DNA from: an uncultured Deinococcales bacterium
GTDB lineage: Bacteria; Deinococcota; Deinococci; Deinococcales; JAAFIG01
DNA: 10,362 nucleotides
Direction: 5' to 3'
NCBI GenBank assembly: GCA_964244895.1
Contig: CAXTKV010000185.1
Coordinates: forward strand, 1 to 10,362
The notes under the pieces are model-generated. The model saw only the letters and a program-made list of their open reading frames with translations. It did not search any database and was not told the DNA's origin. The position numbers were made by a program, and so were the translations under genes. Shown in pieces: positions 3 to 10,296 of the stretch; position 1 is the first letter of the stretch, and the number at the start of each line of letters is the position of its first letter.

Positions 3-701
3 TATTTCGACATCAATTACCTGGACATCCTGGCGAGTTGCGAGAGCGGCTGGGATCATTCCACGCGCTGCGACGAGCGCTGGCTGGAGCATTTGCCGGT
101 GGACCTGAACAGCATCCTGTACGTGCGCGAGCTGGACTTTGCGAAGGCAGCAGAAATGGTCGGGGATCTTCAGAAAGCTCGAGCCTGGCGCGAAAAAGCC
201 GAGGCTCGAGCCGAGAAAATTCGAGCGTTGATGTGGGATGAGGAGGCTGGGTTCTTCTTCGATTACGACGTGACCGCCGAGGCTCGAAACCTGGACGCGT
301 CCCTGGCGGGATTCTTCCCGTTGTGGGCGGGATTGGCCACGCCGGATCAGGCCAGCCGCGCGGTTGAAACGTGGTTGCCGCGATTCACACAACCCGGCGG
401 GCTGGTCACGACCCTGAGGGCGCAGGAGGGCCGGCAGTGGGCCTGGCCGAACGGCTGGGCTCCGTTGCAGTGGATCGTGGACGCGGGATTGGAACGCTAC
501 GGGTTCAAAGCGGAGGCGCACGGGCTGCGGTCGCGCTGGCTCGAGAATGGCGCTCGGGTTTTCGCCAGGACACTTTCGATGTGGGAAAAGTACAACGTCG
601 TGGAACCCGACGCTCAGGGCGAAGGCGGCGTCTACGGGCACGTCACGGGCTTCGGCTGGACGAACGGCGTCTTCGCGGATTTCGCTCGGCGCACGCCGTG
701 A
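3..701 (+). CDS. Alpha,alpha-trehalase, glycoside hydrolase family 37 (5'-truncated by the window edge)
   Basis: Frame 3 is open from the window start: YFDINYLDILASCESGWDHSTR...LPVDLNSILY. It carries GH37 hallmarks ESGWD-S-R, PVDLN, G-FFDYD, QWAWPNGWAPLQW, MWEKYNV and GFGWTNGV. Stop TGA at 699-701. Confidence 0.93.
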   Translation, partial: YFDINYLDILASCESGWDHSTRCDERWLEHLPVDLNSILYVRELDFAKAAEMVGDLQKARAWREKAEARAEKIRALMWDEEAGFFFDYDVTAEARNLDASLAGFFPLWAGLATPDQASRAVETWLPRFTQPGGLVTTLRAQEGRQWAWPNGWAPLQWIVDAGLERYGFKAEAHGLRSRWLENGARVFARTLSMWEKYNVVEPDAQGEGGVYGHVTGFGWTNGVFADFARRTP

Positions 702-1207
702 ACCCGACCCGCTTGACCTCGAGAACGCCGCTCGGGACGCATCCGTGGCGAGTCTGGCTGCTCGGAATCGCACTGCTCGCGGCTCGAGCCGTGGCCGGAG
801 GTGGCGGTTCGGTCAGCGTCCTCGACCATCCGTGGTTCGCGGGTCGCGCCGTGCCGTGCCTGACGGTGTACTTGAAGGATCAGCAGCCGAAATTTTCGGG
901 CTCGAGGGTGTTTTATATCTCGAGCGTGCAGTCCGGGGTTGGCTACACCTACGCGCACGTCTACGACCCGGCGGCGAATCATCTGATCCTCTGGGAGCCG
1001 TACTTTTTATCAGAATGCGACGACCTGCGCTTCTCGAGGAGGAACTGGGATCTCGAGAAGGATGTCGCAGACGATCCGGGCAGCAGCACGTACCTGCTGT
1101 GGCGCAGCGAGGTTCCGGGCTTGATCGCGCGTTGCAAAGCCGGTGAGCGTGTGACCATCAAGATGCGAAACGGTCGGTTCGTGTCTGCCAAGATTGTTCG
1201 TCGCTGA
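698..1207 (+). CDS. Hypothetical secreted protein, 169 aa
   Basis: GTG at 698 overlaps the trehalase stop (GTGA, 4-nt overlap). The N-terminus reads as a signal peptide (..PWRVWLLGIALLAARAVA|GGG), followed by a globular-looking domain with three Cys. The track's longer start at 371 overlaps trehalase and is not credible. Confidence 0.75.
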   Translation: MNPTRLTSRTPLGTHPWRVWLLGIALLAARAVAGGGGSVSVLDHPWFAGRAVPCLTVYLKDQQPKFSGSRVFYISSVQSGVGYTYAHVYDPAANHLILWEPYFLSECDDLRFSRRNWDLEKDVADDPGSSTYLLWRSEVPGLIARCKAGERVTIKMRNGRFVSAKIVRR

Positions 1208-1230
1208 ATCTCGAGGGGTCGGCAATCACA

Positions 1231-1275
1231 AACACCGTCCCGCACGCAAACGAAAATTGCGTCTGGGACGGTGTT
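1231..1275. repeat. Intergenic inverted-repeat family, copy 1 (13-nt spacer)
   Basis: AACACCGTCCCGCACG-CAAACGAAAATTG-CGTCTGGGACGGTGTT; starts 24 nt after the stop at 1207. Confidence 0.9.
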
Positions 1276-1342
1276 CTCTTTAGGTTCACTCGGGTTCGAC
1301 CCGTGTGGCACGCCGCTCGAGCAGCCCGGAAAACAACTGCGG

Positions 1343-1348
1343 TAGACT
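1343..1348 (+). promoter_or_regulatory. -10 box of a probable leaderless argJ transcript
   Basis: TAGACT lies 7 nt before ATG 1356, with no Shine-Dalgarno in between. Confidence 0.7.
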
Positions 1349-1355
1349 TTCGCCC

Positions 1356-2504
1356 ATGCGTCTTCCGATTGGATTCCGCGCCAGCGGCGTCAAGGCTGGC
1401 ATCAAACCCTCCGGCAAACCCGATCTGGCGCTGATCGCGTCCGGTAGCCCGTGCGCTTGGGCTTTCGCGGGCACGCGGAATCTCGCGGCTGCCGCGAGCG
1501 TCCAGCGCGCCCGAACGCTCTACGCGAGCGGCGCACCGTTGCAGGCCATCGCGGTCAACGCGGGCAACGCGAATTGCGTCACCGGCGCGGAGGGCGTGCA
1601 AACGGACGCGCGCATGGCCCAAATCGCGGCTACGGAACTCGATCTCGAGCCGGGGCGCGTGCTGACGGCCTCGACGGGCGTGATCGGCGTGCAACTGCCC
1701 GTGGAGAAACTCGAGACGGGCATCCCGGAAGCCAGAGCCGCGCTGGGGTTTGAGCTCGAGCCCGCCGCGACCGCAATCATGACGACCGATCTGGTGATGA
1801 AAATTTCGGAGCGCACCCTACCGAACGGCGCGCGCGTCGTGGGCTTTTGCAAGGGTTCCGGCATGATTCACCCGAACATGGCGACCATGCTGGCGTTCGT
1901 CATGACGGACGCGGAACTCGAGCAGTCGGCCCTTCGCGCGGCGTTCGGCGGGATCGTGGCGCGCACCTTCAACGCGGTCACGGTGGACGGCGACACGAGC
2001 ACCAACGACATGGCCGTGGTCATGGCCAACGGCTCGGCTGCACAGACGGACGTGCGAGCCGCGCTCGAGGCGATCGAGTCCGTCATGCGCGACCTGGCGC
2101 GCAGCATCGCGCGGGATGGCGAGGGCGCGACGAAACTCATGACCGTCAACGTCGCTGGCGCACCGTCGGACGCGGACGCGCTGCGGGCCGCAAAGACCGT
2201 GGCGGGCTCGAGCCTGTTCAAATCCGCCGTCTACGGCAACGACCCGAACTGGGGCCGGATTCTGGCGGCGCTCGGGCGCTCGGAAGTGACCTTCGATCCG
2301 ACCGGGGCGAAAGTCAGCGTCCAGGGCATCAACGTGTTCGACGGTAAACCGCTCGAGTTCGACCGCAAGGCCGCGTCACTGGCGATGCGCGCTGAGGAAG
2401 TCGTGATCGATTGCGATCTGGGCGCGGGAAATGGCCAGGGAACCGCCTGGGGTTGCGACCTGACGGAAAATTACGTCAAGATCAACGCGGAATACACGAC
2501 CTAA
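1356..2504 (+). CDS. argJ: Glutamate N-acetyltransferase / ornithine acetyltransferase ArgJ, 382 aa
   Basis: [45 protein letters not shown], the autocleavage motif [38 protein letters not shown] and C-terminal [18 protein letters not shown]. Start moved to ATG 1356. Confidence 0.97.
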
Positions 2505-2627
2505 GGTTTTCTCGCTCGGGCTCGAGAACCAGCCGTTTGAAAGTTCTCGAGATTTCCTTCGGGCGAACGCGAGATGGTCGCTTTGAGCGCGCTCGAGGTT
2601 CACGCCGTCGGCGCAGAAACCTCGAAA

Positions 2628-2673
2628 TACATCGTCCAGCACGCACTTTCAAATCAACGTGCCGGACGGTCTT
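2628..2673. repeat. Intergenic inverted-repeat family, copy 2 (14-nt spacer)
   Basis: TACATCGTCCAGCACG-CACTTTCAAATCAA-CGTGCCGGACGGTCTT; abuts the ABC ATPase stop at 2675, between convergent genes. Confidence 0.85.
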
Positions 2674-9873: not shown

Positions 9874-9880
9874 AGGCCGA

Positions 9881-9889
9881 ACTGTAGCA
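9881..9889 (-). promoter_or_regulatory. Extended -10 box of a probable leaderless tatD transcript
   Basis: Minus strand reads TGC-TACAGT-TCGGCCT-GTG. Confidence 0.7.
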
Positions 9890-9925
9890 CCCGAATCCCG
9901 AAGTCGCTCGAGCCAGACCGATCGG

Positions 9926-9981
9926 AAGACCGTCCCAGATGCAATCCTTGATAACACGTAAACGCCCTTCTGGACGGCCTG
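9926..9981. repeat. Intergenic inverted-repeat family, copy 7 (24-nt spacer, degenerate right arm)
   Basis: AAGACCGTCCCAGATG-CAATCCTTGATAACACGTAAACGC-CCTTCTGGACGGCCTG; the spacer has the same length as copy 5 and also ends in AACGC. Confidence 0.65.
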
Positions 9982-10046
9982 CCCCTATCTTGAACGTCAT
10001 GCCTGACTGAAGGTTTCCGCTCGAGTCCAAATGCGCTAAAACGCCT

Positions 10047-10075
10047 TTGACAAGCCCAAAAACGCGTGCTATCCT
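10047..10075 (+). promoter_or_regulatory. Strong sigma70/SigA promoter for the tRNA-Thr-tuf unit
   Basis: TTGACA (10047-10052), 17-nt spacer ending TGC, TATCCT (10070-10075), with short A-tracts upstream. Confidence 0.88.
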
Positions 10076-10101
10076 CTTTCGGCATTTGCGGCAACGCTTT
10101 T

Positions 10102-10176
10102 GCTCGTGTAGCTCAGTGGTAGAGCACTCCCTTGGTAAGGGAGAGGTCGTCGGTTCAATCCCGACCACGAGCTCCA
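10102..10176 (+). tRNA. tRNA-Thr (anticodon GGT)
   Basis: Acceptor stem GCTCGTG/CACGAGC, D arm GCTC-AGTGGTA-GAGC, anticodon arm CTCCC-TTGGTAA-GGGAG (GGT at 10134-10136), T arm GTCGG-TTCAATC-CCGAC, discriminator T and encoded CCA. Confidence 0.98.
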
Positions 10177-10296
10177 AATCGGCGAGACGTTCAAGACTCA
10201 AGTACGAATTCAGCACATTCAGGGCAGTACCGCCACACAAACAGGCTCGCGCGAGCGGGCCGATTCACCTTGAGGGGATCAAACCTCGAGCGTTCC

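Follow-up and report, generated by a model that had tools for sequence, protein, structure and literature searches.

CTCGAG, a HIP1-like iterated palindrome in an uncultured Deinococcales bacterium and its relatives, and its possible use as a Chi-like signal of AddAB

The palindrome CTCGAG is found in large excess throughout the genome of an uncultured Deinococcales bacterium (assembly GCA_964244895.1; genome code G000), in genes as well as between them, and this excess shifts the sequences of the encoded proteins. The stretch of DNA analysed here, called the window, is contig CAXTKV010000185.1 over its 10,362 nt, and it contains 70 exact copies of the word (178..10290; 6.76/kb), which are a dispersed sample of a genome-wide trait. 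The data suggest that CTCGAG is an independent case of the type of HIP1, the highly iterated palindrome of cyanobacteria, apparently unreported in the literature searched. In addition, we tentatively propose that it is a HIP1-like word spread by biased repair dependent on the helicase-nuclease AddAB, which may read it as a Chi-like stop.

The base composition of the window (GC 0.644) predicts about 3.5 copies, a 20-fold excess, and 200 dinucleotide-preserving shuffles gave a mean of 5.5 and a maximum of 11, a 13-fold excess. An earlier reading of this DNA, the first-pass annotation, had counted about 70 copies, and the exact count from the first (178) to the last (10285) is 70. Its 20-fold excess holds for the base composition of the window, whereas genome-wide the excess is 12.7-fold (order 0) or 9.8-fold (order 2). 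The G000 assembly has 5,124,934 bp with 62.7% GC in 328 contigs (the longest of about 60 kb) and is 91% complete. CTCGAG is its top hexamer by count, with 21,883 copies (4.3/kb, one per 234 bp), and its observed/expected ratio (O/E) is 12.7, 9.1, 9.8, 3.4 and 1.25 under Markov orders 0 to 4, falling at the high orders because these absorb the sub-words of the word itself.

As the first-pass annotation had itself allowed, such an excess could be confined to the window, produced by codon usage or part of a general TCGA bias. The first is contradicted by the 328 contigs, all of which carry at least 1.59 copies per kb, the window contig being among the densest. As for codon usage, the genes of G000 (4,272 genes, 78% coding, from a home-made caller) were subjected to five within-gene synonymous shuffles, and the excess survives in all three frames, which hold 10,952, 780 and 3,218 copies compared with about 3,030, 52 and 476 after shuffling (3.6-, 15- and 6.8-fold). 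A general TCGA bias does not explain it either, since the other 15 NTCGAN words have order-2 O/E values of 0.21-1.54 compared with 9.84 for CTCGAG. The intergenic DNA contains 6.1 copies per kb (O/E 9.1), and no dipeptide ranks above Leu-Glu in the G000 proteins (O/E 2.12). Shuffles, frames and intergenic DNA therefore agree with the earlier proposal that an active process, acting on the DNA itself, maintains a HIP1-like word across the genome.

It could still be argued that the word is a by-product of a mobile repeat, of a codon or amino-acid preference or of TCGA bias, given that half of all sites are Leu-Glu codons and that many repeats carry it. G000 contains 1,148 hairpin elements resembling repetitive extragenic palindromes (REP-like), most of them 46 or 56 bp long, in which the arms are conserved and the loops vary; copies of CTCGAG are common in the loops and just outside the ends, with a bimodal distance pattern, and 355 of the 1,148 elements have a copy within 9 bp of an end. 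However, these elements are a minor carrier, since even with 9 bp on either side they account for just 631 of the 21,883 sites; the non-repeat intergenic DNA still contains 5.8 copies per kb; the excess over synonymous shuffles persists in every frame; and the trait holds from 43% to 71% GC. The genome counts, the shuffles, the non-repeat intergenic density and the element tally refute the by-product explanation as the main cause and make it highly improbable, and the REP-like elements have made a minor contribution as a source of the word.

The resemblance to HIP1 (GCGATCGC) and to the alternate HIPs of cyanobacteria is extensive, these being likewise palindromic, dispersed and present in all frames and in intergenic DNA, according to the accessible parts of PMC4390886 and PMC5861425. 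Like HIP1, CTCGAG is conserved between genomes, is lost in small genomes and has a cause that is not settled. It exceeds the Markov and codon expectations, in all frames and in intergenic DNA genome-wide, and it is conserved in relatives of the family, as is typical of HIP-type words. It is not HIP1 proper: the word is CTCGAG and not GCGATCGC, the host is a member of Deinococcales and thus of another phylum, and no co-distributed cognate orphan methylase of a canonical kind was found. Moreover, the CTCGAG 6-mer reaches 4,300-7,000 copies per Mb, compared with 300-2,700 per Mb for the 8-mer HIP1, its O/E is lower (10-30 compared with 55-228), and it comes and goes with AddAB in part. CTCGAG works like HIP1 and perhaps like Chi, departing from HIP1 proper and from the asymmetry of Chi. 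To our knowledge, HIP1 has gone three decades without an agreed cause, and an independent case of the HIP type could tie such a word to a mechanism, or exclude AddAB.

The phylum survey that the first-pass annotation had suggested comprised 300 further genomes, most of whose group labels (f for families, g for genera) are codes, with codon-corrected shares computed from partial sequences. It located the trait in the family of G000 and in Meiothermus- and Truepera-type genomes, where the excess is weaker, and showed that the Deinococcus-type genus avoids the word. All 18 other genomes of the family contain 4.6-6.8 copies per kb. The genera g13, g22 and g23 contain 1.4-3.5/kb, family f2 0.3-2.7/kb, g9 0.6-1.6/kb and the 100 genomes of g7 0.01-0.27/kb; g7 is probably Deinococcus and g9 probably Thermus, and identical proteins tie g13 to Meiothermus ruber and g11 to Marinithermus hydrothermalis. 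In family f3, G253 reaches 7.0/kb and its congener G199 0.30/kb, while G198 has 3.6/kb; the small genomes G199, G194 and G207 are all poor in CTCGAG. The unpublished genome G265 contributes one row to the tallies of site density, of the Marinithermus-type methylase and of AddB, and no conclusion depends on it alone. There is thus a natural gradient from 0.01 to 7 copies per kb inside one order, including a pair of congeners of which only one is enriched in the word.

The share of Leu-Glu pairs written as CTCGAG tells the same story when compared with the codon expectation: 59% compared with 10% in G000, 64 with 2 in G008, 88 with 3 in G253, 84 with 12 in G198, 52 with 13 in G042 and 64 with 35 in Trueperaceae, against 17 with 39 in g9, 2 with 8 in g35 and 2 with 11 in Deinococcus loci. 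In a quick aroC tree, G000 groups (SH-aLRT 100) with 16 loci of metagenome-assembled genomes (MAGs) of uncultured Deinococcales or Deinococcota, whose CTCGAG O/E is 15-32 at 43-60% GC. Calidithermus chliarophilus has an O/E of 12.3, Trueperaceae 5.1-6.6 and the loci titled Deinococcus 0-0.9, except for one MAG at 3.4 that groups with Thermaceae in that tree. The earlier annotation had suggested that an enrichment may already be reported in Meiothermus; the word is enriched there and its CTCG(m6A)G methylation is published, but no paper reporting the enrichment was found. In fact, we found no published report of CTCGAG excess in any of the Deinococcota in a search that left subscription papers and most supplements outside. 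As a separate observation, CCTCGAGG ranks first among the 8-mers in 60 kb of G079, as it does in G198, but is avoided in G000.

G000 has no close relative in the set, so the evolution of the sites was followed by aligning G017, G016 and G018 to another family member, G008 (6-12% apart; 99, 80 and 49 kb). Contigs of a relative about 91% alike are present in two read runs and were not used as evidence. In the first 60, 44 and 29 kb of these alignments (pairs 6-10% apart), 311 of 349, 245 of 273 and 130 of 158 sites are conserved, compared with 0.75, 0.64 and 0.57 for all hexamers. Among 73,301 clean windows of alignment, singleton gains at 1, 2, 3 and 4 differences were 10, 10, 12 and 2, and singleton losses at 1 to 5 differences were 67, 20, 16, 7 and 1. 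The one-step losses and gains (67:10) give a skew of 6.7. For a recombining sample under a directional force of S ~4.7, values of 3.9-8.7 are predicted; this S is the value implied by Leu-Glu usage, and thus the observed skew fits if the genomes of the G008 group still share alleles. Gains were observed at all three symmetric positions of the palindrome, and therefore they do not stem from one mismatch type. Vsr-type repair was rejected as the source, because depletion affects the transversion neighbours and not TTCGAG and CTTGAG, the neighbours by deamination, the gains include C>T changes, and no C5 methylase was found in the 91% complete G000 assembly. Nor was any clean insertion of the word, as expected from an insertion or footprint origin, seen among 182 indels read by eye, 22 of them near a site.

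The number of differences in the gains raises the question of whether sites are written in single multi-base events, i.e., short-patch ectopic conversion from fragments that carry CTCGAG, either by itself or in addition to another force. In 24 of the 34 singleton gains the site differs by 2-4 bases from the shared allele, compared with 24% for other words (P 1e-8), and the synonymous gain rates are nearly flat for 1, 2 and 3 changes (7/59, 6/151 and 5/110), those of 14 control words being 47/1707, 7/2020 and 1/356. The divergence raised within about 9 bp of sites and the bimodal distances inside the REP-like elements also fit such events. On the other side, the multi-base cases consist for the most part of synonymous or conservative changes, and single steps of which the last is favoured would yield up to 1.5 cases in the cleanest class compared with 5 seen (P 0.02), so that a stepwise path keeps some probability. 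In the Leu-Glu model the 1-step class shows a larger excess than the 2- and 3-step classes. The gains at 1 and 2 changes numbered 2/2 and 2/1 in two small, uninformative replicates, with 0 at 3, and imports from diverged kin can mimic the pattern. Left-plus-right contexts are shared by sites no more than by control words, and copying from other sites was rejected as the origin, with no such excess and no donor signal. These data hint at multi-base gain events, which we regard as a lead, and multi-base writing as the general explanation has a slender chance.

The sites also repel each other. Among 16,442 Leu-Glu pairs of G000, the chance that a pair is written as CTCGAG rises from 0.47 when the nearest other site is less than 15 bp away to 0.75 beyond 400 bp. 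When sites are counted within 100 bp, the slope per site gives z = -8.0, compared with -2.0 to +0.1 in six shuffles (three genome-wide and three within genes) and with -1.6 to +4.7 when each of nine control words is put through the same test on itself. An unrelated codon pair shows a slight drop near sites as well (z -4.2), with under half the slope. In G008 the repulsion is seen within 100 bp (z -5.5), but between 100 and 300 bp z is +3.2, and in G042 it is weak (z -1.9). The repulsion acts over 100-400 bp and is symmetric, and no strand polarity was found in the flanks beyond control palindromes or in the repulsion, the orientation of the contigs being guessed from a weak skew. This distance effect is not predicted by an independent per-site mutation bias; it is predicted by a scanning enzyme, by uptake bias or by a binding protein. 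A strong, saturating and directional force thus acts at the DNA level.

Regarding the last of these possibilities, a chromosome-organising or repair protein needing a site every few hundred bases could select for its binding site. The repulsion, the deficit of gaps longer than 800 bp (0.81-0.85 of Poisson) and the conservation of sites agree with it, as does the 10-90 kb periodicity of HIP1 (PMC5861425, in the part accessible). On the other side, the gaps between sites in G000 are near exponential (coefficient of variation 0.96), so that the spacing is close to random overall, and no helical or short-range periodicity was seen in the pair counts of G000. The turnover is also several times faster than a species-level selection model allows, since this predicts 14 one-step differences compared with the 79 seen, an imperfect control in which the pairs are not independent and the control dipeptides are affected by avoided sites. 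Together with the lack of any candidate protein, these observations make selection for binding quite unlikely.

The force acts on phage DNA as well as on the chromosome. Meiothermus phage MMP17 contains 86 CTCGAG in 33 kb (2.6/kb; O/E 7.7) and 8 copies of the reversed word, its density resembling that of a Meiothermus chromosome (2.4/kb). A CRISPR array of G000 (C36:30815-32109; 19 repeats) holds CTCGAG in its repeat and in 5 of its 18 spacers. Several viral contigs (L334, L335, L352, L395-L397 and L329) reach 6-8 copies per kb over several kb; of 125 viral loci scanned for clusters of sites, 17 had sufficient length and density, and none was tied to a host.

Another force of this kind would be uptake or transformation, if DNA with CTCGAG were taken up, protected or recombined better, so that alleles with the site spread without AddAB. 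This would account for the conservation, the skew, the reshaping of proteins and the saturation, and also for the scarcity of the word in the small genomes G199, G194 and G207. According to the accessible text of bioRxiv 2024.09.10.611283, HIP1 raises transformation up to 7-fold when unmethylated and more than 100-fold when methylated, and HIP1 co-varies with uptake-type proteins (PMC13756078, seen in part). Against this, the flanks of CTCGAG in G000 show a mild preference at the first base only and no extended consensus, and phage MMP17 carries the word at host-level density. In addition, Deinococcus and Thermus are naturally competent and have no excess. The DNA uptake sequences of Neisseriaceae and Pasteurellaceae are likewise genome-wide, change codons and amino acids, and saturate. 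They are non-palindromic, 9-12 bases long with an extended consensus, and have a known uptake bias, whereas CTCGAG has six bases, is palindromic and lacks such a consensus. We consider an uptake drive unlikely.

Methylation offers a different route. In Elhai's model, a methylase of CTCGAG or TCGA would mark the strand that mismatch repair keeps, so that new sites become fixed until saturation, a saturation that the model predicts (PMC4390886, in the part accessible). G000 has MutS and MutL motifs. Furthermore, table S3 of PMC4752239 lists CTCG(m6A)G enzymes without a listed nuclease in Marinithermus hydrothermalis (M.Mhy14884I), Meiothermus ruber (M.Mru1279II) and M. chliarophilus (M.Mch9957IV), with 94-99.5% of the sites methylated in the three strains. 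The same word is therefore experimentally methylated in the same phylum, and the main text of that paper, as far as it was accessible, mentions neither these three organisms nor a genome-wide excess. The Marinithermus and M. ruber enzymes were matched to their probable proteins by species and gene position. The former is a homologue of M.TaqI and the latter a different enzyme with an Eco57I domain, i.e., they belong to different families; both are patchy. Orthologues of the Marinithermus enzyme are found in 34 of 301 genomes, 31 of them in the motif-poor g9, and in 0 of 10 family genomes; those of the Meiothermus enzyme (at least 50% identity) are found in 9 of 80 genomes, in 0 of 19 family genomes, and in neither G253 nor G198. 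The M.TaqI-like methylase is present in 31 of 31 g9 genomes (loci L095-L124, from g9 and others), suggesting that it is a fixed host enzyme there. A phage search with the Meiothermus methylase returned two weak matches.

The methylases of G000 itself look, by sequence, like parts of restriction, BREX or type I systems, with labels that we partly assume: a type II restriction-modification pair of low GC that is free of the word, with 0 CTCGAG in its methylase gene (C114), a BREX PglX-like gene (C139, and again on C256), the HsdM and HsdS of a type I system (C122) and a D12 methylase adjoining a nuclease-like gene (C6); C114, C139, C122 and C6 correspond to L001-L004, in that order. Many methylase genes of relatives, at 38-47% GC, carry 4-7 CTCGAG per kb. 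No orthologous group spans the family when four Pfam families are clustered for G000 and 24-40 relatives, taking the 30 best loci per family. Some relatives thus do methylate the word, but methylation does not follow the excess. The methyltransferase-coupled repair considered in the first-pass annotation is weakened, since CTCG(m6A)G is published in relatives but no shared or cognate enzyme was found in the family, and the correlation of word and methyltransferases that it had advised gave no tracking with the two traced enzymes. We reject a methylase as the cause on the basis of the four Pfam families and of the two experimentally assigned enzymes, and the ratchet as a whole appears improbable. 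CTCGAG does not behave either as the target of a resident restriction-modification system, being enriched and without an orthologue of the known CTCGAG methylases.

A Chi-like signal of AddAB, a mechanism absent from the first-pass annotation, fits best of the mechanisms considered. The addB gene of G000 was located by tblastn with the proteins of relatives at C128:11525-14104 (L530:4522-7107), and addA is split by a contig end (end of C128 and start of C123). The AddB-like protein matches ADDB_N (E 9e-11), and next to it is encoded an AddA-like helicase-nuclease (UvrD helicase and PD-(D/E)XK nuclease). A four-sequence AddB profile matches Bacillus subtilis AddB across the Chi-binding segments (E 2e-9). 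The structural model of AddB has pLDDT 67 and pTM 0.36, and the top five structures matched by its fold are AddB chains without exception, at TM-scores of just 0.26-0.27. When aligned to the Chi-pocket residues of B. subtilis AddB, including the Chi-contacting E217 (PMC4614115, in the part accessible), the pocket has an invariant Q42, keeps the F210 and E217 equivalents, has Tyr in place of W73 and varies at the T44 and R70 positions. All 29 AddBs compared from motif-rich genomes have Glu at the E217 equivalent, and of nine from motif-poor genomes five have another residue there (Asp in three proteins of g9, Thr or Ala in two of g55), a pattern of residues that we take as a hint. The C-terminal nuclease motif of AddB looks degenerate across the order, with the Cys cluster kept, while the nuclease motif of AddA is probably intact. 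No conserved third gene was seen beside addAB across the order.

The AddB profile matched 209 of the 301 genomes. Strong matches (E 1e-28 or better) were obtained in G000 and 7 of 9 family relatives, in 61 of 62 f5, 14 of 14 f4, 93 of 103 f2 and 5 of 112 f3 genomes, the other 25 f3 matches being weak. A native addA or addB is present in 18 of the 19 family genomes, and the one miss is 57% complete. The 108 genomes judged to have no native AddB (107 of f3 and G194) all contain 0.46 CTCGAG per kb or less, and G199 and G194 also lack addA. The same-genus pair follows this pattern, as G253 has both genes and G199 has neither. PMC9751324 describes, in its accessible part, addAB as not known in Deinococcus and widespread in Thermus, and this part names no Chi word for Thermus AddAB.

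According to our proposal, AddB would bind CTCGAG, and AddAB would trim a broken copy to the first CTCGAG met. The gap would then be refilled from an intact copy, so that a copy lacking the site would gain it and a copy having it would mostly keep it; break repair would thus tend to preserve alleles that carry the site and to replace those that lack it. With trimming and refilling of this kind, sites would therefore be gained and rarely lost for good. A new site would matter less when another lies near, giving diminishing returns, and a palindrome would serve AddAB arriving from either direction. Polyploidy is known from bacteria of the Deinococcus-Thermus group, and the donors might be the multiple chromosome copies or DNA from kin. 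In this view, the methylases of CTCGAG seen in some relatives would have been acquired later, for protection. The fullest form of this proposal, in which CTCGAG is a palindromic two-way Chi of Deinococcota AddAB and propagates itself in chromosomal and phage DNA by biased break repair, sometimes in multi-base steps, to the point of rewriting the proteome, and in which Deinococcus lost the word together with AddAB, is a possibility about which we are doubtful. If true, it would put a named enzyme behind a HIP-type repeat, and cultured members with published methylomes are available, with AddAB as the candidate enzyme.

The known Chi of AddAB and RecBCD (AGCGG in B. subtilis; PDB 4CEH, 4CEI and 4CEJ; PMC4614115) is likewise a short and frequent word in an AddAB-bearing host, as described in the accessible part of that source. 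The alignment of AddB over the Chi-binding helices and the presence of CTCGAG in a temperate-type phage extend the likeness, but CTCGAG is palindromic, shows no polarity, lies far beyond codon usage and reshapes proteins.

Several observations weigh against a role of AddAB, and the association of AddAB with CTCGAG is a partial match. Known Chi words are asymmetric, co-oriented with replication and largely explained in abundance by codon usage (bioRxiv 2021.07.08.451572, accessible part), whereas CTCGAG is neither asymmetric or co-oriented nor explained by codon usage, and no polarity of flanks or repulsion was found with a weak orientation proxy. AddAB is not sufficient: at least 34 genomes have AddB but no excess, including three g35 genomes with full addA and addB and 0.02-0.05 CTCGAG per kb, in which no replacement iterated word appeared in 200 kb, and 30 of 31 g9 (Thermus-type) genomes, in which the word lies below the codon expectation (95 kb from three of them). 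The genera g55 and g16 are near neutral, and g55 and G207 have AddB without excess. Conversely, nine genomes at 0.9-1.8/kb have no clear native AddB (eight are 79-85% complete and G084 99%), a clear AddA piece being present in G294 only. The association probably amounts to about three independent losses, as deduced from genus labels without a genome tree, two of them in small genomes that lost many genes, and, besides methylases, AddAB is the only gene set profiled in this way. The E217 equivalent is unchanged in g35, g16 and G207, and 14 of 110 conserved AddB columns differ in two or more of the poor groups. The repulsion and the loss:gain skew fit uptake bias or protein binding equally well, and HIP1-rich cyanobacteria often lack recBCD (PMC5101192, accessible part).

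Other features of these AddAB genes were also noticed. The addA and addB genes of g35 sit in separate loci (L545-L547 and L588-L590; genomes of the Deinococcaceae family). G198 has a second, different AddAB-like pair adjoining a WYL-like gene (L185 and L188), probably mobile, and the AddB of G000 has a short tandem peptide repeat near residues 570-590.

The structured RNA of G000 holds few sites, with 7 in 70 tRNAs (5,500 bp) and 0 in a 1,435 bp stretch with the assembled part of 16S. Other palindromes are strongly avoided in G000, such as CGGCCG (O/E 0.01), CCCGGG (0.04), GCCGGC (0.06) and GGWCC (about 0.13), and CGATCG has an O/E of 0.32. In G008 (L125-L144), GTCGAC, GAGCAC and the words that contain GGCC are near zero, and GAGCTC is nearly missing from most family genomes. 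Word-level forces in this family are unusually strong both ways, in enrichment and in avoidance. For practical work on these bacteria, the CTCGAG excess is relevant to XhoI cloning, binning, the analysis of codons and the assignment of phages to hosts.

In the window, the distribution of the 70 copies rests on our own gene calls, made with the home-made caller. The CTC GAG (Leu-Glu) frame holds 38 copies (540, 1052, 1644, 1710, 1755, 1917, 2064, 2352, 2687, 2969, 3176, 3332, 4184, 4247, 4498, 4609, 4861, 4990, 5011, 5164, 5197, 5920, 6328, 6795, 6855, 7275, 8093, 8192, 8804, 8813, 8864, 9175, 9202, 9382, 9394, 9658, 9826 and 9838). The other two frames, in which the first-pass annotation had also seen the word, hold 6 copies as xCT CGA Gxx (178, 205, 2887, 2986, 5211 and 6611) and 11 as xxC TCG AGx (901, 919, 1033, 2207, 5312, 5633, 6032, 6685, 7758, 8073 and 8835). 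The intergenic DNA contains 15 copies (718, 783, 1210, 1316, 2521, 2546, 2592, 3478, 4344, 7479, 7567, 7738, 9907, 10020 and 10285); all 13 reported previously were recovered, and our gene calls add 718 and 783, while the status of 1316 and 9907 hinges on the choice of start codon. Six REP-like hairpin elements of 45-56 bp are located at 1231-1275, 2628-2673, 4322-4367 (with the CTCGAG at 4344 inside), 5040-5085, 7671-7726 and 9052-9097.

The genes of the window carry the word as context and not as cause, in line with the earlier statement that no responsible gene is visible among these housekeeping genes. On the forward strand they encode a trehalase-like protein (3-701), ArgJ (1305-2504), a CRP/FNR regulator (3575-4288) and a MOSC protein (4378-5031), and on the reverse strand a LolD-like ABC ATPase (2675-3427), HisD (5155-6474), the product of an open reading frame without NCBIfam match (6471-7505), AnmK (7751-8944) and TatD (9112-9957). 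A second open reading frame without NCBIfam match lies at 791-1207. A search for related loci with AnmK gave no match. A tRNA-Thr(GGT) gene (10102-10176) lies upstream of what we take to be the start of a tuf-like gene (10309-10362), which closes the window.

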